From positions 1 through 16,794 of the forward strand of contig CAIQWF010000086.1 of NCBI GenBank assembly GCA_903875455.1: a stretch of 16,794 bases of DNA, in the 5' to 3' direction. This stretch comes from an uncultured Pseudomonadota bacterium (GTDB lineage: Bacteria > Pseudomonadota > Gammaproteobacteria > Methylococcales > Methylomonadaceae). Shown piece by piece: positions 167 through 16,794 of this stretch (the stretch's first letter is position 1; each line of letters begins with the position of its first letter). Both the position numbers and the translations under genes were made by a program. Under the pieces are notes generated by a model. It made no database searches. It was not told the DNA's origin and saw nothing but the letters and a program-made list of their open reading frames with translations.

Positions 167-932
167 TCGTGGTCCCCATAAACTCTTTTAGAACTGCAAT
201 TAATTCTGCTTGATGGGACAAAAATGGTACATGCCCTGCTCTATTAATAATGCTGACTCTAAGGCGTGGATTTAAATTCAGCATTTGCTCACCTACAGCC
301 ACCGGCACTAAAGTATCGTGACTTCCTAAAATCACTTGCACAGGACAATGCAATTTAGTTAACTGTGGGCGTAAATCCTGCTGTTGTAAAACCTCCAAGC
401 CACCTTGTAAAATTTCTACAGTCGGAGGTTCACAATCATGCAAAGCTGTTTTTAGCTCTTTCAACACGCCTTTGTAATCCTGCAAACCTTTAACTTGCAG
501 AGACAAAAATCGCAATAAAGTTCCGCGACAATCGGCAGTCAAATCAGCAGTGAATTTTTCCAGTGTTGCCTGTTTCATCCCTGCCCAAGTGGGAGTCTTC
601 ACAAAACAGGGATTGCTGCCGATAACAACCAGATTTTTGATTCGTTCAGGAAATCGAGTGGCTAAATCCAATGCTACTGCGCCTCCTAACGACCAACCTA
701 CTAAAGTACAAAGGGAAACTGGCAATATTTTTTGTAACTGGTTGCTGATATTTTCCAAGGTAAATTGAGGTAGCTTTTCGCTATGTCCGTGTCCGGGCAA
801 GTCTACACATATCACTTGATAATGCTGTGCGAGTTGTTTGGCAAAAGTCCGCCATATACCAGTGTGCATGGCCCAGCCATGAATTAATAGTACCGGTTCA
901 CCGGCACCATAAGTTTCTGTGTGAATAAACAT
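156..932 (-). CDS. bioH: Pimeloyl-ACP methyl ester carboxylesterase BioH (alpha/beta hydrolase)
   Basis: 258-aa ORF. The N-terminus (GEPVLLIHGWAMHTGIWRTF) matches the BioH signature. It has a GWSLGG nucleophile elbow and a C-terminal His (AGHVPFLSH). bioC lies immediately downstream and overlaps it. Confidence 0.75.
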   Translation of the reverse strand: MFIHTETYGAGEPVLLIHGWAMHTGIWRTFAKQLAQHYQVICVDLPGHGHSEKLPQFTLENISNQLQKILPVSLCTLVGWSLGGAVALDLATRFPERIKNLVVIGSNPCFVKTPTWAGMKQATLEKFTADLTADCRGTLLRFLSLQVKGLQDYKGVLKELKTALHDCEPPTVEILQGGLEVLQQQDLRPQLTKLHCPVQVILGSHDTLVPVAVGEQMLNLNPRLRVSIINRAGHVPFLSHQAELIAVLKEFMGTTNVV

Positions 933-1305
933 TATTAATTATTTTCTCTAAAGCAGACAGAAGCAAATCAACCTATTGAAAATGAAGTCGCTCTCGGCTA
1001 TAAAAACTTCAATATCCTGTTAGCCTCTGTACTGGGATTGGTGGACTATCTATAAGCGGGATTTTATCGCTAATTTTTTCGCCTGCCATATTTGCTATCT
1101 ATGTAGCAGCGTATTGGGATTGTTTCGGCAACTCTTCAGAAGGGGGAGCTACCCTGAATCGTTTGCCAGTTTGACCGCAGATAAGTTAAATTTGGGAGTA
1201 TAAATGCCAACGTTCTTCTCGACCCATTTCGGAACCGCTTTTTCTTTTAGATATTTGTTAATATGCTGCGCCTAGTGTAGCCACTCCACCCGCATCTGTC
1301 TAACA

Positions 1306-2121
1306 TCAAGTTTGGCATACAGGACAAAAATAACTGGCACGTTGCCCAATCTTAACTTGTTGAATTAAATGTTGACACTGATAACAAGGCAATTTTTCCC
1401 GCCCATAAACAGCTAGTGACTGACTAAAATAGCCCGGTTTTCCTTCAGCATTAACAAAATCGCGCAAAGTGGTTCCGCCTTGGTCTATGGCTCGTTGCAA
1501 TACAGCTTTAATTGATAAAGCCAATTTTTGATACTCGTTTAAGGAAATGCCGCCCGCAGCTCGTGTCGGCAAAATTCCCGCCATAAACAGTGATTCACTG
1601 GCGTAGATATTTCCCACACCTACTACATTGTGCCCATCCATTATAAAAGTTTTAATCGGTATTTTTCTCCCAGTTGCCCGGAAAAACAAATATTCCCCGT
1701 TAAAATCTTCCGTCAAAGGCTCTGGCCCTAAATTTTTTAGCAGCGGATGTATTGCAACATCTCCCTCTGCCCACAACACTGCGCCAAACTTACGCTGATC
1801 GTTAAAACGTAACACCAGCTCATTTTTAAAAAGAATATCAACATGGTCATGTTTTCCAGCTTTTTCCGAAGCATGGGTAATGCGCAAATTGCCTGACATC
1901 CCTAAATGTAAAACGATTGCGCCCAAATGGGTATTCAGCAGGCAATACTTGCCGCGCCGTGTCACGCTGTCAATTTGCAAGCCGGAGACAACGCTCGTTA
2001 AATTGGCCGGAACAGGCCAACGCAGTTGACTTTGACGTACAATGGCTGAAGTGATCGTATTACCGATAATATAAGGACTAATGCCTTTACAGGTGGTTTC
2101 GACTTCGGGTAATTCTGGCAT
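1306..2121 (-). CDS. mutM: Formamidopyrimidine-DNA glycosylase (Fpg/MutM)
   Basis: The protein starts MPELPEVETT (the catalytic Pro2 of the Fpg/Nei family) and ends with a C4 zinc finger, CYQCQ...CPVCQ. The six-frame ORF runs 24 codons further upstream to 2193. The functional start must be the Met just before Pro-Glu-Leu-Pro, so I place the start at 2121. Confidence 0.85.
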   Translation of the reverse strand: MPELPEVETTCKGISPYIIGNTITSAIVRQSQLRWPVPANLTSVVSGLQIDSVTRRGKYCLLNTHLGAIVLHLGMSGNLRITHASEKAGKHDHVDILFKNELVLRFNDQRKFGAVLWAEGDVAIHPLLKNLGPEPLTEDFNGEYLFFRATGRKIPIKTFIMDGHNVVGVGNIYASESLFMAGILPTRAAGGISLNEYQKLALSIKAVLQRAIDQGGTTLRDFVNAEGKPGYFSQSLAVYGREKLPCYQCQHLIQQVKIGQRASYFCPVCQT

Positions 2122-2379
2122 AGTGAAAGATAAAAAATGGTGACACAACTGACAATGTCTTATTCTACACACATACGGCGTTGAACTTAGCAAATTTATC
2201 GTAGAATTTACTATGATGATACTTATGTTCGGGTGTAGAATTTTTAAAGACTCTAAATTTAGGTTTTAGTTTAAGAGTAATGTTTTACCCTAATCCATTA
2301 TTCAAAAAATCATGATAGGGCGAACCTAGAAAGATGTTTTTATCCTGTATGTGTAATTTTATTGTTTGGGAGAATTGTG

Positions 2380-3121: not shown

Positions 3122-5293
3122 ATGAAAATGCGTCCCTTTACACATAAAAAGACCTTAGTTTTTTTTATGGTAGTTGCTGCTATAGTCGGCATATTTACCG
3201 ACTATAGCATGGGGACAAAAGTCGATTACTGGATACACGACTCTGCAATAGTTCATCAATATCGTAAAGAGTGGAAACACACTGGCATCGTAGTGCTGGA
3301 TAATGATGTTCCTTTCAGAGTCACCCGTATTCAGGCATTGCCACTGTTTGCCAGAGCAATTGAGCGTTTGGTTGCGGCAGGGGCGAAAGGCGTTTTTCTG
3401 GATGCCCAGGTATCCAAAGAAATAGAAGGGACAATGCCTTATGCCGTCTGTCTGGAGACTGACAGTAACCAACAAATACAAGCTCGCTGGTCTCGGCCGA
3501 AATGTGGTGTTAGTTCTGCAAATAAAAATGCCTGTACTATTACCAATAGCGAAGCAGGTAACGCACCACTAAAGATGAGCCCAGAAGCTATCGCCCGTTT
3601 TAGAATTGCGCCTTATCTGAATGACACTGATCACTTACCGGAGGATTTGCTTTATGACTTTGAAGCTGCTGCGGCAATTCCTGAAACTGGGGTAGTGGCC
3701 CATGAGCGTCTGGTGAGCAGATTATCTTCACCTATGGGCAGATGGCTGGATATGAGTGATGACCACGCTATTTTTCAACTAGCCAGTTTATTAAATCCTG
3801 AGAAAATTGCCAAGTTATACGAAAAAAATCCTTTATTGGACGAAAACTGTGATAACAATAGAAGATGTCGGCGAATACGATTAAGCAAGCCTATTCATGA
3901 TATCAATATAAAAAACAATCAGTTAATTTTGCCACTCAGCCAGTTAGCCTCCTGCAATAATACAATTGCCAACAAAACAGCAGCTTTGCTGAAAAATAAA
4001 TTAGTCATTTTACAAGTAGCAGGCCCTGCAGAAGCCACTGACATCATTGTAACACCAATGACCACCGCATTGTTTAGCCCTCAAATGATGACCCCTGGAG
4101 CGCAATATCTGGTCGATGAAATAGAAACTTTACTGAATCAAGATTATCCACAACAACCACCGCAAGCGGTGCGGATTCTGCTATTTATTTGTGCAGCAGC
4201 GTCAAGCGTTTGGCTAGGTGCTTATTTTTCTCTGGCTTTTTTGCTATTGAGTGCCACCGCTATTTTTATGATCATGGCCGCACTGTGCTTTTTTTATCCC
4301 ATAGTGCAATTATGGCCAGTCACAGCAGTCATGGTGACTTATTCTTTCGGTGCTTTGCAAATAGTCTCGATGCAGCTAATTTTAGGCGGCAGAAAAGGCA
4401 AAATATTATCGGAAATTTTGCCTAGACAGGTACTTGACCAACTCGAAAAAGTAGACTCGTTCAGGAGTAAACAATGCAATGTTGTAGTGCTGATGAGCGA
4501 CCTTGCAGGCTATACCACGGTCACAGAATTGTTAAAAAAGCCAGAGTATGTCATGGACCTGATGAACGACTATTTAGGCAGCACATCGATAGTGTTACAA
4601 AAAGAATACAATGGTATTTTGGAGGCTTATGTAGGAGATATGGTTTGTTATTACTGGGAATATGAAGAAGAAGAAAAACTTGCTGTTTATAAACAGGTTT
4701 TATCTGCAGCCATCAAATTATCAATTTTACAAAAAAACTTTTTCTCCTCAGTTGCTGAACGATATAAAGAATTATTAACACCGGAAGTACTTAAAGAAAT
4801 TAGCATTCTCATTAATGCCGGTATCGGTATTACTGCAGGCACTGTCGTTAAAGGTAATCTAGGTCCTAAAACAGGATTGAAAAAGTTTGCTATTTTAGGC
4901 GACCCTATTAATTTGGCTTCAAGGGTTGAAAGTTTAACCCGTCATTTTAACACTGAAATTATTGTTACAGGTGACTTTGCCGAAGCGATTACAGGAGATG
5001 AAAACTTAGCAGTTAGGCGGTTAGGAGCAATAACAGTGAAAGGAAGGCTTGTGCCGGAAGTGCTATATGCGCTAGGACAAAAAAGCGATCCCAGATTCAT
5101 GGCGGAAAACATAAACGCATGGGAACAATGGATTGCCGAAATAGAAAAAAAAGCTAATGCCAAAAACACTGCCAATGCCCGCATTATAGCCGCCTGCCCT
5201 ACAATTTATAGCAAAGACTACAAAACGGTTCTGGATTGGAGGGAAAAAGGGGTAATGAATGAAAATGGCGTTTGGCAATTGCACGAAAAATAA
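3122..5293 (+). CDS. Membrane-bound class III adenylate/guanylate cyclase with an N-terminal CHASE2-type sensor (TM, ~310-aa periplasmic domain, 3 TM, cyclase, ~100-aa C-terminal extension)
   Basis: 723-aa ORF. The N-terminal TM helix is TLVFFMVVAAIVGIFTDY. A long extracytoplasmic region follows, then a hydrophobic block (LLFICAAASSVWLGAYFSLAFLLLSATAIFMIMAALCFFYPIVQLWPVTAVMVTYSFGALQIVSMQLILGG). The class III cyclase core motifs are present: VVVLMSDLAGYT (metal Asp), AYVGDMV (second Asp), TAGTVVKGNLG and GDPINLASRVESL (transition-state Asn/Arg). This topology matches CHASE2-cyclase proteins. Confidence 0.75.
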   Translation: MKMRPFTHKKTLVFFMVVAAIVGIFTDYSMGTKVDYWIHDSAIVHQYRKEWKHTGIVVLDNDVPFRVTRIQALPLFARAIERLVAAGAKGVFLDAQVSKEIEGTMPYAVCLETDSNQQIQARWSRPKCGVSSANKNACTITNSEAGNAPLKMSPEAIARFRIAPYLNDTDHLPEDLLYDFEAAAAIPETGVVAHERLVSRLSSPMGRWLDMSDDHAIFQLASLLNPEKIAKLYEKNPLLDENCDNNRRCRRIRLSKPIHDINIKNNQLILPLSQLASCNNTIANKTAALLKNKLVILQVAGPAEATDIIVTPMTTALFSPQMMTPGAQYLVDEIETLLNQDYPQQPPQAVRILLFICAAASSVWLGAYFSLAFLLLSATAIFMIMAALCFFYPIVQLWPVTAVMVTYSFGALQIVSMQLILGGRKGKILSEILPRQVLDQLEKVDSFRSKQCNVVVLMSDLAGYTTVTELLKKPEYVMDLMNDYLGSTSIVLQKEYNGILEAYVGDMVCYYWEYEEEEKLAVYKQVLSAAIKLSILQKNFFSSVAERYKELLTPEVLKEISILINAGIGITAGTVVKGNLGPKTGLKKFAILGDPINLASRVESLTRHFNTEIIVTGDFAEAITGDENLAVRRLGAITVKGRLVPEVLYALGQKSDPRFMAENINAWEQWIAEIEKKANAKNTANARIIAACPTIYSKDYKTVLDWREKGVMNENGVWQLHEK

Positions 5294-5364: not shown

Positions 5365-7227
5365 GTGATTATAATTTTGAAAAAACTCAAGTTAATAAAA
5401 TCAAGCAGGCAACATAATCAGCCGCAAACTATCCCAGACATTTTTGATCAGGCTTTTGAATTACACCAACAAAGACAATTTCAACAAGCGGAAATTTTGT
5501 ATCAGAAAGTATTAAGGAAACAACCCCAACATTTCGATGCGCTTCATTTATTAGGCGTACTTGCCAAACAAAAAGGCCAAAATCAGCGTGCAGTCGATTT
5601 AATCAGTCTCGCAATCAAGATAAATCCTAACATTGCTATTGCTCATTCAAATTTAGGTGTAGCCCTTTATGATATGCAGCTGTTTGAAAAAGCAATCGCT
5701 AGTTATGATAATGCTTTGGCCATCAATCCTGATAATGCAGAAGCATTGTCCAATCGAGGCAATGCCTTGCAAAACCTCAATCGTCATGAAGAAGCATTAG
5801 TCAACTATAATCGCGCTTTAACTATCAGCCCTAATTATTTTGATGCCCTCTACAATCGAGGCAATGCTCTACAAAATCTGGAGCGTTATAATGAAGCCCT
5901 TGATAGCTATAACCGAGCTTTAATTATTAAGCCTAATGATCCTAGCATACTATGCAACCGTGGCAACACTTTGCAAAGTCTCAAACGCTATGAGGAGGCA
6001 CTTACTATTTATGATCAAGCCTTGGCTATCAATGAAAATTATGCAAAAGCACTCTTCAACCGTGGAAGCGTACTACGCTTTTTGCATCGACTTGATGAAG
6101 CTCTGGTTAGCTATAACCGTGCTCTAGCTATTCAACCTGATTCTGCAGAAGTGCTTTATAATCTTGGAAATTTGTTCTATTTTGAAGGAAAAGCAGAAGC
6201 GGCAATCGAATATTATCTGCAAGCTATTGCTCTTAAAAATGACTATTTTGAAGCACGTTACGCATTAGGTTTTCTGTTACTTTCCTTAGGAAAGTTCAAA
6301 GAAGGATGGCAATATTATGAAGCTAGATATAATCCGAATATCCAAAATAAAAATACCATTGCACCTAACTTTCAATTTCCTCAGTGGCAAGGTGAATCGG
6401 TTATAGGTAAAACTTTAGTTATTTGGGGAGAGCAAGGCTTTGGAGATGAAATCCAGTTTTGTCGCTATGTATCTGTTCTTAAATCCCAGGGTGCAGCTTA
6501 TATTAGTTGGGTATGTAAAAAACCTCTCAAAGCTTTGTTTAAAACTTTAGAAGCCGTTGATAATGTTCTTTCTGTGGAAAATGCAAGCTCAATCCTTCGG
6601 CACGATTATTGGACTTTTGCATTAAGCATCCCGCTGCATTGCAAAACTACACTTGATAATATTCCGGCAACAGTCCCTTACCTTTATGCAAACCCAGAAA
6701 AAATAACCACAATTACATCCAAGTTAAGTTCTATGAATGAGCTTAAAATAGGTCTTTGTTGGAAAGGAAACCCTAATTTTCAAAATGATGCTGAACGCTC
6801 ACCCGGTATCGACTACTTCAGGCCTTTATTTAAACTGACTGGAATAAAGTTTTTCACCTTACAGCCTGACACTCGTGACGAGTTCCTTGCAGCTACAGAC
6901 AATGCAGGCGTTGATTTTGGACGTGAACTTGATAAAAGCAGTTTTGAAGAAGCAGCCGCTTTAATTATGAACCTTGATCTGGTGATTACCAGTTGTACCT
7001 CTATTGCTCATTTAGCAGGTGCTTTAAATAAGCCGGTCTGGATTGTTTTACCCTTTAGTGCTGACTGGCGATGGCTAACTAACAGGGAAGACAGTCCTTG
7101 GTATCCAAACACACGCCTCTTTCGACAATCTCAACGTGGTAATTGGAGCGAAGTTATTCAGCATATAGAAAAAAAATTGAAAGAAGTCGTCTTAGGAAAA
7201 AGTCAGATTATATGGCCTCTTTCGTAA
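5365..7227 (+). CDS. TPR-repeat protein with a C-terminal glycosyltransferase family 9 (heptosyltransferase-fold)-like domain
   Basis: 620-aa ORF. At least 7 tandem 34-aa TPR units are visible, with the recurring pattern A.YNRGNALQNL.R..EAL.SYNRAL.I.P. The C-terminal ~230 aa carry a GT9-like motif, DLVITSCTSIAHLAGALNKPVWIVLPFSADWRW, comparable to the WaaC/WaaF motif DSGPMHLAAALG.P. There is no in-frame ATG at the 5' end, so the most upstream candidate start is GTG at 5365. Confidence 0.65.
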   Translation: MIIILKKLKLIKSSRQHNQPQTIPDIFDQAFELHQQRQFQQAEILYQKVLRKQPQHFDALHLLGVLAKQKGQNQRAVDLISLAIKINPNIAIAHSNLGVALYDMQLFEKAIASYDNALAINPDNAEALSNRGNALQNLNRHEEALVNYNRALTISPNYFDALYNRGNALQNLERYNEALDSYNRALIIKPNDPSILCNRGNTLQSLKRYEEALTIYDQALAINENYAKALFNRGSVLRFLHRLDEALVSYNRALAIQPDSAEVLYNLGNLFYFEGKAEAAIEYYLQAIALKNDYFEARYALGFLLLSLGKFKEGWQYYEARYNPNIQNKNTIAPNFQFPQWQGESVIGKTLVIWGEQGFGDEIQFCRYVSVLKSQGAAYISWVCKKPLKALFKTLEAVDNVLSVENASSILRHDYWTFALSIPLHCKTTLDNIPATVPYLYANPEKITTITSKLSSMNELKIGLCWKGNPNFQNDAERSPGIDYFRPLFKLTGIKFFTLQPDTRDEFLAATDNAGVDFGRELDKSSFEEAAALIMNLDLVITSCTSIAHLAGALNKPVWIVLPFSADWRWLTNREDSPWYPNTRLFRQSQRGNWSEVIQHIEKKLKEVVLGKSQIIWPLS

Positions 7228-7517
7228 ACTCGAGTTAATCGATCCCATGTACTTTTAGCACAGCCGCAGTTTAGAAAAGTTTATACAGCTTTTTAATTAT
7301 CAACTCCAAGCTATGATTTGAACTAACATCTTGTTTGGTGTTACTCTAAGAACCTTATAATTTTAAAAAGAAAAAGGGATTTTGTAATAACGAAAAAGTG
7401 TGTTTTCACAATTAGCCGGAACAAATTCAAAGCACCCAAATTTTTTATGTAACTTTTAATTGCGGCTAATATTCAAAAGCTTAACAATAATATTTGAAAA
7501 ATATCAGGAGATATCTC

Positions 7518-8588
7518 ATGAGGATTAAAAAAATAAGAAGGCAAATTTTTCTGCCATTGCTTTTTATGGCAAGCCAATCTGCATATGCAGTATATACTCT
7601 CGACCCTGCTACTTGCCCCGCAGGTACAACAGGGACATTAGCTGGGATAGGTTATATTTCTGCGGGAACCTTTTTCCCTGCAACATTCGGCTCACCTGTT
7701 TATGATTGTACTACTGTACCTGTTGTTTCTGCACCTACAATACAGACTTTACAAATTGAAAGAACAACATCCAATCTTACTAACCAGCATATTATGGATA
7801 AGGTAGTTCACGAATATGGGTCAAATAGTCCAGGTGCTGCTTCAGGCGATTCAAATGACTACAAACCTGATGCCGTTTGGGGAGAAACCAACCTTTCCAG
7901 CCTGACCGAACATAATAGTAAAGTGCCCGGATTTGCTTCCAACATTTATCAATTCGTTGGTGGACTCGACAAGCGGCATGGCGACCTATTCTATGGCGCT
8001 GCACTCACGTATGCTTATACCGACAACAACCTGATAGCCAATACTGATAATGTAATGCACACTGTCGGCGTTACCCCTTACATGGCTTATAAAATTAATG
8101 ACTTTCTATTTGCTTCTGGATTAGCAAGTTACTATTACTCAAACACCAGCGGCAGTGCCGGCACCCGCAATATAGATACCCATGATTATCAAGGTGAAGC
8201 CAATATTAATGCTTTCAAGGTGCTTGGCTCTTTTACCTTGAAAGGACGGGCCGGTGTTCGATATAAACATACCAACTCCTCACAAAAAGGTGCTCCAGTC
8301 GGCAGGGATAATACCTTTGACGAGGTTACCGGCATTGTTGACGCTCAAGTAGACTATAAATTTGATAACGGCCTGACCTTATTTACCGGAGCTTTGTATA
8401 ACCATTATACCCGCGAGGCAAGTGGCGCAAGCACTTTGGTAAGAGGCAATGATGTCGTCTGGATGCGCTATGGTGCTGAATATCCTGTTACTAAAACTTT
8501 AATGGTTGGAGCTAAAATCGAAAACGATCTTAATGATAGATTCACAAATTACCTGACAGGCAGTTTAAATTTTCGTTTAGAGCTGTAA
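7518..8588 (+). CDS. Outer-membrane beta-barrel protein, autotransporter beta-domain-like, with a short passenger
   Basis: An AGGAGA site sits 7 nt before the ATG at 7518. The track ORF begins at TTG 7494. The signal peptide is MRIKKIRRQIFLPLLFMASQSAYA. The C-terminal ~250 aa show alternating hydrophobic/aromatic beta-strand patterning with Gly/Tyr-rich turns (GAALTYAYTDNN..., GVTPYMAYKINDFLFASGLASYYY, LTGSLNFRLEL), typical of autotransporter translocator domains. Confidence 0.5.
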   Translation: MRIKKIRRQIFLPLLFMASQSAYAVYTLDPATCPAGTTGTLAGIGYISAGTFFPATFGSPVYDCTTVPVVSAPTIQTLQIERTTSNLTNQHIMDKVVHEYGSNSPGAASGDSNDYKPDAVWGETNLSSLTEHNSKVPGFASNIYQFVGGLDKRHGDLFYGAALTYAYTDNNLIANTDNVMHTVGVTPYMAYKINDFLFASGLASYYYSNTSGSAGTRNIDTHDYQGEANINAFKVLGSFTLKGRAGVRYKHTNSSQKGAPVGRDNTFDEVTGIVDAQVDYKFDNGLTLFTGALYNHYTREASGASTLVRGNDVVWMRYGAEYPVTKTLMVGAKIENDLNDRFTNYLTGSLNFRLEL

Positions 8589-8614
8589 GTTGTAGTCATA
8601 CCTAAACTCAATCA

Positions 8615-8640
8615 AAGCCTCGTTAATCGGGGCTTTTTTA
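8615..8640 (+). terminator. Rho-independent terminator after the outer-membrane protein gene
   Basis: AAAGCCTCG-ttaat-CGGGGCTTT hairpin with one mismatch, followed by TTTTTT at 8634..8639. It lies 27 nt after the stop at 8588. Confidence 0.6.
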
Positions 8641-8675
8641 TCTGCACAAAAAATAACATACTTTATGGAGTTCTC

Positions 8676-9023
8676 ATGCCTTATTTAAATCTGACTACCA
8701 ATATTTCTGTTTCCGCAACTGAAACTTCCGAGCTGCTAAGCCAGTTTTCACAACTTCTGGCTCAAAAAACAGGCAAGCCAGAAAGTTATGTGATGGTGGA
8801 GATGACTACTGACAAACCGATGTTATTTGCCGGAAACAACAAACCGTTAGCGTACATCGAATGTAAGAGTATTGGACTAAGCATTTCGCAAACTAAACCT
8901 TTAGCCGCCGCTATTTGTCAGTTATTGCAAACTACTTTGCAGATTGATTCAGAACGAGTTTATATCGAGTTTAGTGATTGCAAAGCTGATTACTGGGGCT
9001 GGAACAGCTCAACATTTGGTTAA
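8676..9023 (+). CDS. Macrophage migration inhibitory factor (MIF)-family tautomerase homologue
   Basis: 115-aa ORF, MPYLNLTTNISVS...TGKPESYVMVEM...ECKSIGLSIS...RVYIEFSD...GWNSSTFG. Several MIF features are conserved. Pro2 is the catalytic Pro1 after Met removal. Lys32 sits in the TGKP motif. The SIG motif is present. The C-terminal GWNSSTF is almost identical to mammalian MIF GWNNSTFA. A GGAG site lies 8 nt upstream of the ATG. Confidence 0.8.
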   Translation: MPYLNLTTNISVSATETSELLSQFSQLLAQKTGKPESYVMVEMTTDKPMLFAGNNKPLAYIECKSIGLSISQTKPLAAAICQLLQTTLQIDSERVYIEFSDCKADYWGWNSSTFG

Positions 9024-9039
9024 GCTGTTCGATACTCAT

Positions 9040-9066
9040 GGAGTACAAAAACTGTTTTTGTACTCC
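9040..9066. terminator. Perfect 12-bp palindromic hairpin between convergent genes; candidate bidirectional terminator
   Basis: GGAGTACAAAAA-ctg-TTTTTGTACTCC: a perfect 12-bp stem with a 3-nt loop. It lies 17 nt after the MIF stop and about 100 nt after the stop of the convergent coiled-coil gene. There is no separate flanking U-tract. The A5/T5 runs are inside the stem. Confidence 0.45.
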
Positions 9067-9164
9067 CTAATCAATATCCCAGAAAATTTATTATTTTAAC
9101 AAAACATCAAGCCGCCCTTAGTGGCGATTCTATCCTTTCTGCTTTATTTTTCAGTCTGAGATTT

Positions 9165-10871
9165 TTATTTGATTTCTGCCTGGTTGTCGAGCTTTTTAAA
9201 AAATCCCTTTAAACCAGCTAGAGTTGACTTATTTTCACTGGCAACCTCTTCAGATTGAGTTTGTTTTACTGGTTTGGATTTTTTTGCGTCTGAAGGATTT
9301 AGCGGTTCTACAACCTCTGCCTGTTTGTCCAGTTTTTTAAAAAATCCTTTTAAGCCTCGATTCGAAGAATCTTTATTTTCAGCAACACTTTTTTCTTCAA
9401 CTTGTGCTTGTTTTTTAGGCTGGGATTTTTTTGGCTCCACCGATTCTGATGGTTTTGACGATGCTGTTTCTTCGGTTTTTTTCGCCAGAATTTTTTGATA
9501 AAAGCCCTTAAATTGATCCGGCAAATGCTTGGCTTTATCTGCTATTTCGTCAATCTGCTGTTTCGCAGGATTGAGCATATCTACCGGACTCGCCTGAGTT
9601 TTCTCTACCGTCTTTTTCACTTCTTTGCGTTTCGGATTAAGCTTTTGTTCCAGCTCGATAATCCGTGCTTCCGCTTGCTCCTGTTTGGCTATGATAGCAG
9701 CCGGAATGGTTTTTAATGGCGAGTTTTTATCACTCATCAGCGCTTTTTTAACTTCCAGGTCATATTCCAACCGGAAAATATAATTGCCTTGTTCTGCTAA
9801 CGCCGTATTTAGCTCAGCAATTTTTTGGGTTAACTCCAACTCAACTGTCGCTGGTTTTTTCGCATTTTTAGCCACCAATTCTTTAATAGCAGCTTCACTT
9901 TCCAATAGTTTTCTCTCTAAAGCCTGATTGCTTTCTTGCAGTCTTTCGATAGTTTGTTGCTGTGCCAAAGTTTCTGGTGATCTTGCCCCGGCTGATTTTG
10001 CGGAGCGGTCTGTCAGTCTTTCTTCCAGTCTTTCCAATTGCAGAGTTGCACCTTCCAATTGTTGTTGCTGTTCAAGTTTGCTTTGCTGAGCCTGTGTAAG
10101 TGCTGTTTGCAGTTCTTGTAATTTTTTTTCTGCTTGTTGCTGTTGCTCAACCTGGTTTTGCTGGCTTTGTTGACGTTCTGAGTGTAATTCCTGCAAAGCC
10201 GTTTCTAATTGCTGCTGTTGTTGCACTTCAGCCTGTTGTAGTTGTGCAAATTCTGTTTGAAGCTGTTGCAAATTTTGCTCTAACTGTTGTTGCGTGGCTT
10301 TTGCCTGTTCTGCAAGCTCTGTTTGTTGCATCAAAAATTTTTGCTCTATCTGGCTAACTTGTGCTTTTTGCTGGTTTAGTTCAGTCGTTAATTCGTTTAT
10401 CGCTGCGTCTTTCTCGGCTAAACTGACTTCCCAGCTTTGTTTCAGACTTTCCTGCTTATTCTCAGATTCCTGTAATCGCTGGGTTAATTGTGCAAATTCC
10501 TGATTTTTTTGATTGAGTGATAACTCCAACATTGAAGTCCGTTTTGCTTCAGTTTCCGCAGCCTGTTTGTCTTTTTCTAATTCTTGGTTATTTTTTTCTA
10601 ATTCTGCAATCTGCGCAGCTTGCTCCGTTATTTTAAGTTCTGTCAGCTGGTTTTTTTGTTGCAAACTATTCAAATCAGTACCCAGCTGCATTCGCTGTTG
10701 CTCAGAACTGGTAATTTCTTTTTCTAAGGTGGTGCGCAACTGGTTTAATCGTGACCTGCTTGCTGCTGCCATCATTAACCAAATTAAAATAGCCGACACC
10801 ACAAAACTTATTGCTGCGGCTAACAGCGTGGTTTCCAGATTATATTCCAGACCAAGTAAAAAATCGGGCAT
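9165..10871 (-). CDS. Membrane-anchored coiled-coil protein, Q/E-rich, with C-terminal tandem 48-aa repeats
   Basis: 568-aa ORF with a GGAGA site 7 nt upstream of the ATG. The N-terminal TM helix is LLAAAISFVVSAILIWLMMAAA. About 400 aa of heptad-like, Q/E/L-rich sequence follow, including poly-Q runs. The C-terminus carries two copies of GLKGFFKKLD(K/N)QAE(V/I) spaced 48 aa apart, which corresponds to a diverged ~144-nt tandem DNA repeat at about 9170..9460. Confidence 0.6.
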   Translation of the reverse strand: MPDFLLGLEYNLETTLLAAAISFVVSAILIWLMMAAASRSRLNQLRTTLEKEITSSEQQRMQLGTDLNSLQQKNQLTELKITEQAAQIAELEKNNQELEKDKQAAETEAKRTSMLELSLNQKNQEFAQLTQRLQESENKQESLKQSWEVSLAEKDAAINELTTELNQQKAQVSQIEQKFLMQQTELAEQAKATQQQLEQNLQQLQTEFAQLQQAEVQQQQQLETALQELHSERQQSQQNQVEQQQQAEKKLQELQTALTQAQQSKLEQQQQLEGATLQLERLEERLTDRSAKSAGARSPETLAQQQTIERLQESNQALERKLLESEAAIKELVAKNAKKPATVELELTQKIAELNTALAEQGNYIFRLEYDLEVKKALMSDKNSPLKTIPAAIIAKQEQAEARIIELEQKLNPKRKEVKKTVEKTQASPVDMLNPAKQQIDEIADKAKHLPDQFKGFYQKILAKKTEETASSKPSESVEPKKSQPKKQAQVEEKSVAENKDSSNRGLKGFFKKLDKQAEVVEPLNPSDAKKSKPVKQTQSEEVASENKSTLAGLKGFFKKLDNQAEIK

Positions 10872-11089: not shown

Positions 11090-12958
11090 CTACTGTTTTG
11101 CTGGTGGCAATGAAACCCTCACATCAGCATCTGCCTGCAAACTGCCAAGTACTGCTTCAAACATCGACTCTCCAAAAGCTTTAGCGATATTTTTTTCTGC
11201 CAACTTTAACTGTTTTTTATCGCTTTCACTCATCACCCCTTCGGTGACTTTATTTAGGCTAATCACAATTTGTTCGCCACTGGGCATGGCAACTGTCAGG
11301 ACGGTTGGCTTGCCGCCTACAGGTTTGGCAGCTTTAAATATCGCCTGACTGACCTGGGCTGGAACCTCCGCACTACTGCGACTTAATTTAGCCACCGTTT
11401 TAAGCGGCAGCTTATGTTCGGCCACTAAAGCAGAGAATTTTTTCCCTGCCAATAATTGCTTTTTAAGTTCGGCTGCTAAACTAATCGCGTCTTTTTTAGC
11501 CTTTTCAGCCAACAAAGCCGTGACAATGGCAGACTTAACTTCTTTTAGATCGCGAACGGCAGCAGGGTGATGTTCTTTCATCCTTAGCACCACAATTTTA
11601 TCAGTGCCCAGTTCCACAGGCTCGCTATTATTACCTTTTAATACCTCTTCTGAAAAAGCCGCACTTCGTACTGCCGCTTCTTTGGCAATCCCATCACCTG
11701 TTTCTTTGGTAAACAGCGGAGTTTTTTCTACCTGCACACCTAAAGCTTCGGCAACTGCGGTCAAGCTGTCGGGATTTTGATAGCTTACTTCGGCAAGCTT
11801 ATCATTTAAAGCATAAAAATTGGCTTCCGCTTCTTTACGTTGATACGCCTTGGTTACTTCGGCTTTTACCTCTGCAAACGGCTTTACTACTCCTGGTACT
11901 AATTCAGTGACTTTGATCAAATGATAGCCGTAAGCAGATTTAACCGGTTTTGACACTTCGTTGAGTTTTAATTTTCCCGCAACCTCTTCAAAGTTTTTCT
12001 CCATCACCCCCGCTTCAAACAAACCTAAATCTCCGCCTTTTGCAGCGGTAGCTTTATCTTCAGAAACCTCAGCCGCTAACGCTTCAAACGTTTTGGTTTT
12101 TAAAGCTTCCTGTGCAGCTTCAGCTTTTTTCAAAACGGCTTTTTCATCAGATCCTTTAGTGAAAGCAAATAAAATATGACTGATTTTACGCCGCTCTTTG
12201 CTGCTATAAAGTTGTTTTTGCTCCTCATAGAAGCTTTTTAGTTGTGCTTCCGTGGCGTTGACTTCCTTTGCCAAATTGTCCAGAGACAAAGTAGCGTATT
12301 CTATTGAAACCTGTTCCGGTGATTGATACTGGTTTTGGTGCTGCTGATAATAAGCTTTGATTTCCGCTTCAGTCGGTTGGCTGGTTGCAGGAGATACCGT
12401 AACAGTTGTGTATTCTATGTCGCGAAGCTGATTCTGAATTTTAAAGAAATGCTCGATGTCGTATGGGGTTGCAAAACTGCTATCAGTAATACTGCGCTGA
12501 TATTGTTCCATTACCTGGCTTTTTTTGATCCGGTTGACAAATTCTGTCGAAGAAAGATGTTGTGCTGACAATAAGTCCTGATAGCGTTTCTTATCAAACT
12601 TGCCATCCACTTTAAAATAGTCCATGTCCTGAATCAGTTCTCTGGTGGCTTTATCAGTAGCGGCCAAGCCTTGTTTTTCAACGTGTTGCAAAAGCACTTC
12701 GTCCTTGATTAACTTGTTTAAAGCCTGTTTTTTTAAAGTTTCCTCATCAATATTCATCCCTTGCAATTGCTGGCTGAATTGTTGATATGCCCTATTGACA
12801 TCATTTTGGAAAAACTCTTTATGATTAACTGATGCCACAGCTTTTTCTGAGCCACCCGAGATGTAATTTTCAATGCCCCACAATGTGAAAGGAACGCCAA
12901 TAACCAACACAAGCACCCAAGAAAAGGCTCTTGATTTCTCTCTAATTTTTGTCAACAT
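11090..12958 (-). CDS. ppiD: Periplasmic chaperone / peptidyl-prolyl isomerase PpiD
   Basis: The real start is probably MLTKIREKSRAFSWVLVLVIGVPFTLWG, with an N-terminal signal-anchor like E. coli PpiD. The track ORF extends 19 codons further upstream. A SurA-like chaperone region follows. A parvulin motif is present (SAYGYHLIKVTE). The length is typical (~620 aa). The gene sits beside hupB as in enterobacteria. Confidence 0.8.
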   Translation of the reverse strand: MLTKIREKSRAFSWVLVLVIGVPFTLWGIENYISGGSEKAVASVNHKEFFQNDVNRAYQQFSQQLQGMNIDEETLKKQALNKLIKDEVLLQHVEKQGLAATDKATRELIQDMDYFKVDGKFDKKRYQDLLSAQHLSSTEFVNRIKKSQVMEQYQRSITDSSFATPYDIEHFFKIQNQLRDIEYTTVTVSPATSQPTEAEIKAYYQQHQNQYQSPEQVSIEYATLSLDNLAKEVNATEAQLKSFYEEQKQLYSSKERRKISHILFAFTKGSDEKAVLKKAEAAQEALKTKTFEALAAEVSEDKATAAKGGDLGLFEAGVMEKNFEEVAGKLKLNEVSKPVKSAYGYHLIKVTELVPGVVKPFAEVKAEVTKAYQRKEAEANFYALNDKLAEVSYQNPDSLTAVAEALGVQVEKTPLFTKETGDGIAKEAAVRSAAFSEEVLKGNNSEPVELGTDKIVVLRMKEHHPAAVRDLKEVKSAIVTALLAEKAKKDAISLAAELKKQLLAGKKFSALVAEHKLPLKTVAKLSRSSAEVPAQVSQAIFKAAKPVGGKPTVLTVAMPSGEQIVISLNKVTEGVMSESDKKQLKLAEKNIAKAFGESMFEAVLGSLQADADVRVSLPPAKQ

Positions 12959-13020
12959 AATATATGCCTTAGACCTTAAAAAATAGACATAACCCAATAC
13001 GCAGGTTGTAAACACAACCC

Positions 13021-13874: not shown

Positions 13875-14924
13875 ATGTGCGCTGAACAACAACGCTGGCG
13901 CGGCCTTATGTTGGGAACCGCTGTCGGTGACTCAGTAGGCTTGGCGGCTGAAGGCATATCGCACCAACGCAATGCCAAAATATTTCGTCAGCAATGGCGG
14001 CAGCGCTTTTTTATCCGTTGGGGCATGTGCAGTGATGATACGGAACACACTGTCTTTGTCGCACAAGCTTTATTGGCTCATCCGACCCAGGTTGAGTCTT
14101 TTCGCAACCGTTTGGCGTGGAGTTTGCGCTGCTGGTTTCTGGCATTACCTGCTGGCATTGGTTTGGCGACCGGCAAAGCCATCATTAAATTATGGTTAGG
14201 ATTTAATCCGAAACACAGTGGTGTTTATTCCGCCGGGAATGGTCCTGCGATGCGGGTTGCGCCCATTGGTGCATTTTTCGCCCAACAACCAGCTTTGTTA
14301 AACGAATATCTGACCGCCTCAACCTTAATCACCCATACCGATAAAAAAGCCTTAATCGGGGCAAAAGCTATTGCAGAAACAATTGCCTGGGTATGGCGTG
14401 AAAATTTCACTAAAAAACCAGCGTTAGCTGATTTTATTGCGCTGTTGGGTCAAATTGATGCCGATACAGAATGGCAATCGTTGGTGAATCGGATTGAACA
14501 CGGGCTACAGCAAAATTTAACTGTCAATCAGTTTGCTGATTTGATGGGCTTAAGTCACGGAATTACCGGCTATATCTATCATACAGTGCCGATGGTGCTC
14601 TATGCCTGGTACAAACATTTTGGAGATTTTGCGCAAACTTTAACCAGCATTTGGGATTGTGGCGGTGATACTGATACAACCGGGGCAATTGTCGGAGCTT
14701 TAGCTGGCAGTGTGGCCGGTGAGCAAGGGATTCCGGCTGACTGGATAAACGCGATTTTGGAATATCCGCATTCGGTGAGTTTTTTACAAAAGCTGGCAGA
14801 CCGGCTTGCTAAACGTGAACATAAGCCGGTGTTTTGTTTTGCCCCCGCCATCATTTTGCGGAATTTATTTTTCTTGGGCGTAGTATTGCTGCATGGTTTT
14901 AGACGCTTGTTGCCACCTTATTAA
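13875..14924 (+). CDS. ADP-ribosylglycohydrolase family protein (DraG/ARH-like) with a hydrophobic C-terminal tail
   Basis: 349-aa ORF. ARH signature motifs are present: GTAVGDSVG near the N-terminus, CSDDTEHT, and C-terminal GGDTDTTGAIVGALAGSVAGEQGIPADW. A GGGGGAAG site lies 6 nt upstream of the ATG. The last ~30 residues (VFCFAPAIILRNLFFLGVVLLHGF) are strongly hydrophobic, which is unusual for this soluble enzyme family. Confidence 0.75.
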   Translation: MCAEQQRWRGLMLGTAVGDSVGLAAEGISHQRNAKIFRQQWRQRFFIRWGMCSDDTEHTVFVAQALLAHPTQVESFRNRLAWSLRCWFLALPAGIGLATGKAIIKLWLGFNPKHSGVYSAGNGPAMRVAPIGAFFAQQPALLNEYLTASTLITHTDKKALIGAKAIAETIAWVWRENFTKKPALADFIALLGQIDADTEWQSLVNRIEHGLQQNLTVNQFADLMGLSHGITGYIYHTVPMVLYAWYKHFGDFAQTLTSIWDCGGDTDTTGAIVGALAGSVAGEQGIPADWINAILEYPHSVSFLQKLADRLAKREHKPVFCFAPAIILRNLFFLGVVLLHGFRRLLPPY

Positions 14925-15064: not shown

Positions 15065-16794
15065 TTATGTCAAATCATCCTGATTCACAACCACAGGAGA
15101 TTCTGCCAAAACTTTTTCCAGAATGGTGCCTTTCACCAGTTGCGAAAATACATCCGCAACACTGTTGCCGCCTAAAATAGCCAGCGGAGCCATACTCTCT
15201 GCCAGTTTTTGTGCTAACGCTTTATCCGCAAATGCCTGCATCGCCGCGATAAATTGTGGTGATACTGCCTGCGCCTGCTGCACAGTGGCGGCAACATTGG
15301 CTTGCAGCTCTTCAATCTGTTGTTGCAGCTGTGCTTTGCTAATGGCTAGATTCAAATCGGTTTGCGCTTTATGGCGGGTTAATTCCGCCTGATTAATGCT
15401 GTCTAATTGTTGCTGCTTGGCAAGGTCTGCTTCCAGCCGCTGCTTTTCCACGCCAATCTCATTATTGAGTTTGGCTAAATTCACCGCAAGCTGCTTGTTA
15501 AAAGTGGCAATATCCAAATCCAGTTGCAATTGTTGGGTTTCGGCGCTGGTTTGCAGAATTTTTTGTTTTATCGCCTCCTGTTGCTGTTTCAATTCCAAAT
15601 TACGTTTTTCGCTGGCAATTTCCAGGGTTTGCTGTACCACACTGTGCTGGGCGCGAATCAATAATTGCGAAATAGCCGCGTCCTGAATCGCCACATCCAA
15701 CACTTCCACATCATAAACGTGCATTCCATTTTCCGAAAACAGCAAGCCTGCTCTCACACCCGCTTCATTAGCAGTGCCGAGCAAGGTATCACGCACTAAC
15801 CCAATCGCATTGGCATAAAAAGTTTCGATGCCGTATTTTTTAATCGCATAGCGCAAAATTGAGCGAATATGTTCGGTCAAAAATTTCACATAGTTTTCAA
15901 TATCAAACCATTTATTCGGCTCGCCGGTAAAATTAACCTGATACGACACTAATAATTGTACCGGGCAAAAATCGGCAGTTTCCACCTCAATCCGATCTGA
16001 AACCTTGTTATGCAAGGAGCGCAAATAGACGGTTTTTATCGGTTGCTCATCAGTTTTTGGGGTGCCGGTGGACAAGTAAATGGTTTGCAGGGTTTCGTCA
16101 TATTCCAGCAAATAAGTTTGCGGCCCGACGATGACTTTACGGTCGCCATTTTTGCTGACCACCATCACTGCATAGCCGGTCCAGACATCAATCGACACCG
16201 CACCTTCATATTTGGTATCTAAGGTAATGGTGCGCGGTTTGGTGAAATCCTGTCTGCGGTTGAATTCTTCACTGGCAATAATTGCAGGAGCTGGAGCGGC
16301 ATCAGACAAGGCGCCACGTTGTAAATAAGAACGTGCTTGTTGCTCATCAACAAAATCACTGCCCAATGTTTTTTTCTGATTTAACGCCATTAACTGGGTG
16401 TTATATTCCAACGCTTCTTTATTGCCGGGAAACCAGATTGCCACCAGTTTCGGGTCTATTACCCGCCTTGCAATCACTTGTTTGCGCGGGTCAGGTAAAA
16501 ACATGCAGGGGCCACGCTGCAAAGTAATTTGCCCACTCAAGCGGTTCAACACATAACGCGCTTCACCTGCCGGAATTGCCACCGCATAATTGATTTCCTG
16601 ATCACTGTAACGGACGATGGCATGTTCAGGACGCGGAAAATAAATCATCTGCTCTTTGCCGGTGATAAACAGTTCATCGCCGACCTGATAGGCTTTGCCA
16701 TTTTCTTGGTATGGGGCAATGACCTTGATGTAAATGCCGCTGATTTCATTCAGCTCAATCGCCCGAAATTTAACGGCACCGTCTTTTTTGATAA
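15065..16794 (-). CDS. Major vault protein (MVP) homologue; C-terminal ~576 aa visible and the N-terminus is beyond the window edge
   Basis: I extended the reading frame by hand and it stays open from the track's Met at 16648 up to position 16794, so the gene is 5'-truncated by the window. The translated sequence aligns with human MVP as I recall it. MVP-repeat-like unit: [46 protein letters not shown] versus MVP [26 protein letters not shown]. Shoulder region: [28 protein letters not shown]...[25 protein letters not shown] versus MVP [28 protein letters not shown]...[61 protein letters not shown] versus MVP [32 protein letters not shown]. A ~150-aa Q/E/A-rich helix follows, as in the MVP cap-helix. 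The tail is [21 protein letters not shown]. Confidence 0.8.
   Translation of the reverse strand, partial: [575 protein letters not shown]

Follow-up and report, generated by a model that had tools for sequence, protein, structure and literature searches.

A 16,794-nucleotide stretch of DNA from an uncultured gammaproteobacterium (contig CAIQWF010000086.1 of assembly GCA_903875455.1; the whole stretch is called the window below) carries a gene whose 115-residue product resembles macrophage migration inhibitory factor (MIF). We conclude, with a probability of about 85%, that this gene is the Methylococcales ortholog of the "phenylpyruvate tautomerase MIF-related protein", predicted from its sequence to be a Pro1-dependent, cytoplasmic enzyme found throughout the order. 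The family, the fold, the conservation of the catalytic residues, the distribution, the clade structure and the native composition of the gene are established here. The initial annotation, made from the letters of the window, had recognized the MIF family and had gone on to propose a eukaryote-like gene possibly used at a host interface; the first part of this description was borne out, while the second was not supported, in view of the bacterial clade in which the gene sits, a divergence that tracks that of the neighboring gene ppiD, its native composition and the absence of Arg11 and of the CALC cysteines.

Family membership and catalytic site

The open reading frame (ORF; 115 codons in the ORF listing) starts with ATG-CCT, no earlier start codon being possible after the upstream in-frame stop, and its product, MPYLNLTTNISVSATETSELLSQFSQLLAQKTGKPESYVMVEMTTDKPMLFAGNNKPLAYIECKSIGLSISQTKPLAAAICQLLQTTLQIDSERVYIEFSDCKADYWGWNSSTFG, contains the Met-Pro start, TGKP, SIG and GWNSSTFG elements that had been pointed out initially, with the catalytic Pro1 intact. 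With 82.4 bits (gathering cut-off 22 bits), this protein matched the whole of the Pfam MIF profile PF01187, from position 1 to position 114 of 114. The sole other models of the tautomerase superfamily that it touched remained under their thresholds, namely Tautomerase_2 in the Pfam scan (16.6 against a cut-off of 28) and TIGR00013, the model for 4-oxalocrotonate tautomerase (4-OT), in the NCBIfam scan (17.2 against 56.9). Among solved structures, the best sequence match was the MIF homolog of Prochlorococcus marinus (PmMIF, 2xcz; E 1.2e-24), followed by Arabidopsis MDL2 (8ap3) and MDL1 (8dq6) at E values of 1.7e-23 and 1e-18, and dozens of mammalian MIF entries of the PDB matched at about 1e-17 to 1e-18.

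An AlphaFold2 monomer model, built with 14 bacterial homologs, had a mean pLDDT of 87.6 and consisted of two beta-alpha-beta repeats (strand 3-8, helix 14-32, strands 40-44 and 59-64, helix 70-88, strand 95-99). When the model was compared with the PDB using Foldseek, the top 50 matches were all MIF-family structures (TM about 0.8, with 2xcz first), and no 4-OT or CHMI structure was among these 50. The 4-OT and CHMI branches do share the beta-alpha-beta block and the catalytic N-terminal proline; however, a short (about 60-aa) chain with a single beta-alpha-beta unit would be a mark of those branches, whereas two repeats are fused in the 115 aa found here. Placement in the 4-OT or CHMI branch is therefore ruled out by the sub-threshold models, the two-repeat chain and the MIF-only fold matches, and the protein is a member of the MIF branch of the tautomerase superfamily.

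The likeness to PmMIF, the best match in both sequence and fold, is close: both proteins come from free-living bacteria, both are 115 aa long and begin with Met-Pro, both have GKPE-YVM, KSIG and WGWN-STFG, and they are about 40-42% identical. They differ in that PmMIF falls in a separate clade with Synechococcus and has Gly, rather than Glu, at the position of human Asn97. The Arabidopsis MDL proteins, second best among the solved relatives, have the same fold at about 40-43% identity and fall in a separate clade with Chlamydomonas. With mammalian MIF and D-DT and the parasite MIFs, the protein shares the Pfam family, the fold, Pro1, Lys32, Ile64, Tyr95, Trp108 and Phe113; it differs in lacking Arg11 and Cys56/Cys59 and in having Glu for Asn97, and its source is a methanotroph rather than an animal or parasite. 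Identity was 38% to human MIF and 25% to D-DT, the former in agreement with the 35-37% to the human MIF chains aligned by Foldseek.

Counting from Pro1, residues Pro1, Lys33 (of TGKP), Tyr37, Ile65 (of KSIG), Tyr95, Glu97, Trp108 and Phe113 occupy the positions of human Pro1, Lys32, Tyr36, Ile64, Tyr95, Asn97, Trp108 and Phe113, and human numbering is used from here on. Across 73 Methylococcales sequences, Pro1, Lys32, Tyr36, Ile64 and Tyr95 are kept in 72-73 (Pro1 in 72), and when Trp108 and Phe113 are included the range is 71-73, the window protein having all seven. This invariance of the pocket argues for selection on the catalytic site. Human Asn97 contacts the phenolic OH of the substrate. 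Its position is taken by Glu in the window protein and in all 73 Methylococcales sequences, and Glu is also the commonest residue there among the other bacterial representatives; the Gly of PmMIF means, therefore, that Asn97 is not universal in the MIF family. A Glu97 that is invariant in the clade hints at a substrate preference unlike that of mammalian MIF.

From these features, we infer a trimeric, enzymatically active protein located in the cytoplasm. Removal of the initiator Met would leave Pro1 as the free N-terminal general base; the active site would be formed by Pro1 with Lys32, Tyr36, Ile64 and Tyr95 at the subunit interfaces of a presumed homotrimer, and the enzyme would catalyze the keto-enol tautomerization of an alpha-keto acid or related enol. 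Keto-enol tautomerase activity has been reported for mammalian MIF and for PmMIF, in the latter case as cited in PMC6826473 (its ref. 62, Wasiel et al. 2010). The search for a secretion signal gave a negative answer at the N terminus, where a signal peptide is not possible because Met-Pro aligns to profile position 1 and there can be no upstream start; for this reason, the protein would be expected to act in the cytoplasm of the methane-oxidizing gammaproteobacterium.

Several points weigh against this assignment. (i) With Asn97 replaced by Glu, phenylpyruvate or hydroxyphenylpyruvate may not be the real substrate. (ii) The neighborhood of the gene gives no clue to a pathway, and its most frequent neighbor, a LigT-like gene described below, has no evident link to a tautomerase. 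(iii) The phylogeny is distance-based, was built on about 115 columns and has mostly unlabeled metagenomic leaves outside the Methylococcales, which makes its deeper branching tentative. (iv) The five C-terminal residues of the monomer model (111-115) are of low confidence. In MIF trimers, the C-terminal segment packs against the neighboring subunit.

Distribution and inheritance in the Methylococcales

The closest named relatives of the window MIF come from Methylobacter, Methylococcaceae, Methyloprofundus and a methanotrophic endosymbiont of Bathymodiolus, and they are annotated in RefSeq/PGAP as "phenylpyruvate tautomerase MIF-related protein". The RefSeq/PGAP proteins of Methylobacter, Methylomonas and others belong to the same orthologous clade (51-77% identity) and have the same length and the same conserved residues; their difference lies in chromosomal position. 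The identical window protein is already present in NCBI and ENA (P0001), and the window MIF is an already known, database-annotated kind of protein in its usual lineage. Since PpiD, encoded nearby, likewise has its best named relatives in Methylobacter spp. (60-63% identity), the contig, judged by these two proteins, comes from an uncultured Methylococcales methanotroph and not from a known pathogen lineage.

The initial statement that bacterial MIFs are uncommon does not hold. A scan of GTDB, with one genome per species and two clade-specific peptide patterns from bacterial sequences only, found a confirmed relative in at least 539 species representative genomes. Among the best 80 of these, 79 were Methylococcales or unclassified proteobacterial or gammaproteobacterial metagenome-assembled genomes (MAGs). 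The best 80 span at least nine genera (Methylomonas, Methylobacter, Methyloglobulus, Methylomicrobium, Methylomarinum, Methyloprofundus, Methylovulum, Methylomagnum and Crenothrix) and also include unclassified Methylococcaceae/Methylococcales, uncultured proteobacterial/Gammaproteobacteria MAGs, a snail endosymbiont and one member of the Thioalkalispiraceae. Cultured free-living carriers include M. methanica NCIMB 11130, M. tundripaludum, M. marinus A45 and Methyloglobulus morosus KoM1. When 1.84 billion cluster representatives (50% identity) were searched with a profile, the result was 2810 clusters at E<=1e-3, of which 1295 were at E<=1e-10. A published survey of the tautomerase superfamily counted 1679 sequences in the MIF subgroup and noted "significant representation from bacterial organisms" there (PMC5818174), and a cross-kingdom MIF phylogeny was rooted with the MIFs of Synechococcus, Thioalkalivibrio, Oscillatoria and Microcoleus and cited bacterial MIF tautomerase activity as a sign that the enzymatic function is ancestral (PMC6826473). 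Our literature search for MIF in methanotrophs found no report. Bacterial MIF-like tautomerases are a recognized and structurally characterized family, and the window copy is a routine methanotroph ortholog that matters mainly for annotation. In the profile search, the top-scoring representative (P0121, 333 aa) has three tandem MIF domains in one chain and could, from this arrangement, be a covalent "trimer".

The position of the gene relative to eukaryotic and cyanobacterial MIFs was examined in a neighbor-joining tree, rooted on D-DT, in which 73 Methylococcales copies were combined with 145 cluster representatives, five references and the Thioalkalispiraceae copy (224 sequences in all). All Methylococcales copies and the window protein fell in one clade, together with two unlabeled representatives, and the window MIF grouped with that of an uncultured "Methylomonas" MAG (77% identity) and a Methylococcaceae MAG. 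Bootstrapping of a subset of 111 taxa gave the Methylococcales clade a value of 89/100, with no eukaryotic reference inside it in any of the 100 replicates. The clade sits within a large bacterial radiation, outside of which lie the human, plant, algal and cyanobacterial MIFs: the Prochlorococcus protein joined a Synechococcus cluster, the plant MDLs joined a Chlamydomonas cluster, and human MIF and D-DT were outermost. Synechococcus and Chlamydomonas were the sole named anchors beside the clade, most neighboring representatives being without an organism label.

The divergence of the gene runs parallel to that of its neighbors. Compared with its closest relative among 87 MIF loci (L005), identity was 88.7% for MIF, 89.2% for PpiD and 89.2% for HU; compared with Methylobacter, it was 61-66% for MIF and 60-63% for PpiD. 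Compositional signs of transfer were rejected, the GC content and the GC content at third codon positions (GC3) of the MIF gene (40.2 and 38.8%) being like those of neighboring genes (42.0 and 38.8% for ppiD; 41.6% GC for the whole window). Carriage on mobile elements was likewise rejected, plasmid and phage collections giving only two and three distant matches, respectively, at 28-35% identity. Neither an integrase nor a transposase was found near the gene in the ORF listing or in the Pfam and NCBIfam scans of the larger ORFs of the window, and no tRNA flanks it. At the order level, therefore, the clade, the parallel divergence and the native composition make this essentially a vertically inherited bacterial tautomerase.

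The single feature at odds with plain vertical descent is the varied chromosomal position. Only L005 shares the order outer-membrane-protein-like gene, MIF, coiled-coil gene, ppiD and HU gene; elsewhere among the 87 loci, the MIF gene occurs in at least eight different contexts, and a conserved neighborhood as a clue to function was rejected, no pathway being inferable. The commonest context (16 of the 87 loci, in several genera) places MIF 7-89 bp downstream of, and on the same strand as, a gene for a LigT-like 2H-phosphoesterase of about 170 aa with two HxT motifs (L016, L022, L030, L031, L034, L041, L045, L051, L053, L054, L057, L059, L063, L075, L078 and L084). This site may be the ancestral position, or the two genes may be a co-transcribed pair without an evident functional link. 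One MAG gave two loci in the scan (L071 and L079), which may be two gene copies. The MIF gene is resident throughout the order and has been moved, perhaps also duplicated; it would have been carried in the Methylococcales since before the genera diverged, as a unit of one gene that shifted repeatedly around the chromosome.

The alternative that the gene was acquired recently by horizontal transfer, be it from a eukaryote or from a different bacterial phylum such as the cyanobacteria, is the least improbable one, although we consider it very unlikely. It would account for a chromosomal context kept only in the closest relative and for the possible second copy in one MAG, and a few plasmid and phage records do contain scattered MIF-family genes. 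Those records are, however, only 28-35% identical, the well-supported clade excludes the Synechococcus/Prochlorococcus, Chlamydomonas/plant and human references, MIF and PpiD diverge in parallel, the GC and GC3 values are those of the neighboring genes, and the window has no integrase, transposase or tRNA flanking the gene.

Alternative functions and the host-interface proposal

Even if the gene is resident, its product could have a role other than that of a tautomerase (thiol-protein oxidoreductase, nuclease, or structural or binding protein), with Pro1 retained for other reasons. Even for mammalian MIF, the physiological importance of the tautomerase activity has yet to be settled (PMC6826473), and the 87 loci provided no metabolic gene neighborhood. 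Nevertheless, the CXXC (CALC) motif of an oxidoreductase is absent, the full tautomerase pocket is invariant across the 73 Methylococcales sequences, and PMC6826473, citing Wasiel et al. 2010, credits the closest solved relative with tautomerase activity; this makes a non-tautomerase role improbable. Less probable again is that the clade with Glu97 has a substrate or role of its own, even one co-opted toward the molluscan MIF pathway in the symbionts of deep-sea mussels and snails, with the window copy as the free-living ancestor type, and nothing that we found supports it.

The least probable reading is the one closest to the initial proposal, that is, a secreted, eukaryote-like MIF mimic that acts on the MIF signaling of a eukaryotic host, as parasite MIF orthologs do. 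The 35-38% identity to human MIF and the retention of Pro1 and of the C-terminal GWN-STF would be compatible with mimicry, as would the occurrence of some clade members in methanotrophic endosymbionts of Bathymodiolus mussels and Gigantopelta snails and the MVP-shoulder and ADP-ribosylglycohydrolase (ARH) genes of the window. However, cultured free-living strains of Methylomonas, Methylobacter, Methylomicrobium and Methyloglobulus have the ortholog too, as do many MAGs from the environment, so the gene is not symbiont-specific, and the copies of the symbionts are unremarkable members of that clade, which is nested among bacterial sequences and contained no eukaryotic reference in 100 replicates.

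The cytokine residues point in the same direction. In MIF cytokines, the pseudo-(E)LR motif (Arg11 and Asp44) engages CXCR2, and CALC (Cys56-X-X-Cys59) is a redox motif. Arg11 is absent from the window protein, which has Val at this position (Ile, Val or Leu across the Methylococcales clade); Asp44 is present, in a position that is variable in the clade (Asp, Gly or Asn); and the positions of Cys56 and Cys59 are taken by Leu and Ile. An N-terminal signal peptide would not fit, which leaves non-classical export as a conceivable route, and the composition is native. Likeness to a vertebrate cytokine, even one that is almost residue for residue at the C terminus, does not point to a role at a host interface if the gene occurs throughout an order, has a native composition and lies among bacterial sequences.

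The wider claim that the organism itself is eukaryote-like fares no better. The ARH, TPR, coiled-coil and MVP-shoulder genes on which it was based do exist in the window, but they stand beside ordinary gammaproteobacterial housekeeping genes (for BioH, Fpg, PpiD and HU), and the Pfam and NCBIfam models that match the ARH, TPR and SPFH/MVP-shoulder types are not eukaryote-specific. These genes do not make the organism host-associated.

Transcription signals and other genes of the window

The signals around the MIF gene had been read largely correctly from the letters. The ribosome-binding site, the upstream terminator (initially placed at 8615..8640) and the downstream palindrome are all real (Table 1), and GGAG also precedes the MIF start codon in L005. 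The upstream stem-loop had a folding free energy of -12.6 kcal/mol (z -4.5), none of 200 shuffled sequences being as stable, and its stem and T-run are kept in L005. That the gene is an independent transcription unit, as initially stated, is plausible but less clear-cut: the 87 bp that separate it from the gene upstream yielded no sigma-70-like promoter on the + strand.

Table 1. Features of the window (positions in nucleotides)
Feature	Position	Strand	Basis or remark
Class III cyclase gene	3122..5293	+	723 aa
TPR gene	5365..7227	+	620 aa
Outer-membrane-protein-like gene	7494..8588	+	364 aa
Intrinsic terminator of the outer-membrane-protein-like gene	8614..8636	+	9-bp stem, 5-nt loop, then TTTTTTAT
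Shine-Dalgarno-like GGAG	8667..8670	+	read from sequence; 5 nt before ATG
CDS, MIF-family (tautomerase superfamily) protein	8676..9023	+	115 aa; ORF, Pfam, PDB match, AlphaFold2, Foldseek, residue table
Perfect 12-bp palindrome	9040..9066		GGAGTACAAAAA / TTTTTGTACTCC, 3-nt loop; between the convergent MIF and coiled-coil genes
Coiled-coil gene	9165..10871	-	568 aa
ppiD	11090..13015	-	
ADP-ribosylglycohydrolase gene	13875..14924		profile match
MVP-shoulder/SPFH-type gene	15065..16648	-	527 aa

The palindrome downstream of MIF folds on both strands (free energy -16 on the + strand and -20.6 on the - strand; z -4.8 and -4.6), and its stem is invariant in L005 (742..770), though the flanking intergenic DNA has diverged. 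Because no T-tract is present beside it on either strand, it is not a canonical intrinsic terminator. It probably forms a hairpin at the 3' ends of transcripts, where we infer a role in termination; it might act as a non-canonical terminator in both directions, or else bind a protein. A repeated, REP-like element was rejected, as the palindrome is unique within the window and was found among the 87 loci only in L005.

In the convergent coiled-coil protein, a membrane anchor at the N terminus is followed by a long coiled coil rich in Gln and Glu and, at the C terminus, by two GLKGFFKKLD-QAE repeats, and the profile scans gave no family match. It is 54% identical to its L005 counterpart (807..2213), which is 100 aa shorter; compared with about 89% for MIF, PpiD and HU, this means that the coiled-coil gene evolves much faster. 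A strong AT skew (-0.3 to -0.4) across positions 9000-10500 is likewise due to this gene. On the other side of MIF, the outer-membrane-protein-like product (340 aa in the database call) has a signal-peptide-like N terminus (…LLFMASQSAYA) and a Tyr/Gly/Asn-rich C-terminal half, which looks like an outer-membrane beta-barrel or autotransporter-type domain; it had no Pfam or NCBIfam match.

Farther upstream, the 723-aa protein combines a class III adenylate/guanylate cyclase domain (35 bits) with an N-terminal region that weakly resembles CHASE2. The 620-aa protein has about nine TPR repeats and a weak, near-threshold C-terminal match to glycosyltransferase family 9 (GT9; 22.2 bits against a cut-off of 22), and its gene has the lowest GC content of the larger genes of the window (38.3%; GC3 29.8%). 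At the far end of the window, the 527-aa protein matched MVP_shoulder at 95 bits (cut-off 25) and Band_7/SPFH at 29.6 bits (cut-off 23.6), with Vault_3 just under its cut-off (26.7 against 28.8); on these profile matches, it is a vault-shoulder/SPFH-type protein in a methanotroph, and its gene has the highest GC3 in the window (47.5%).

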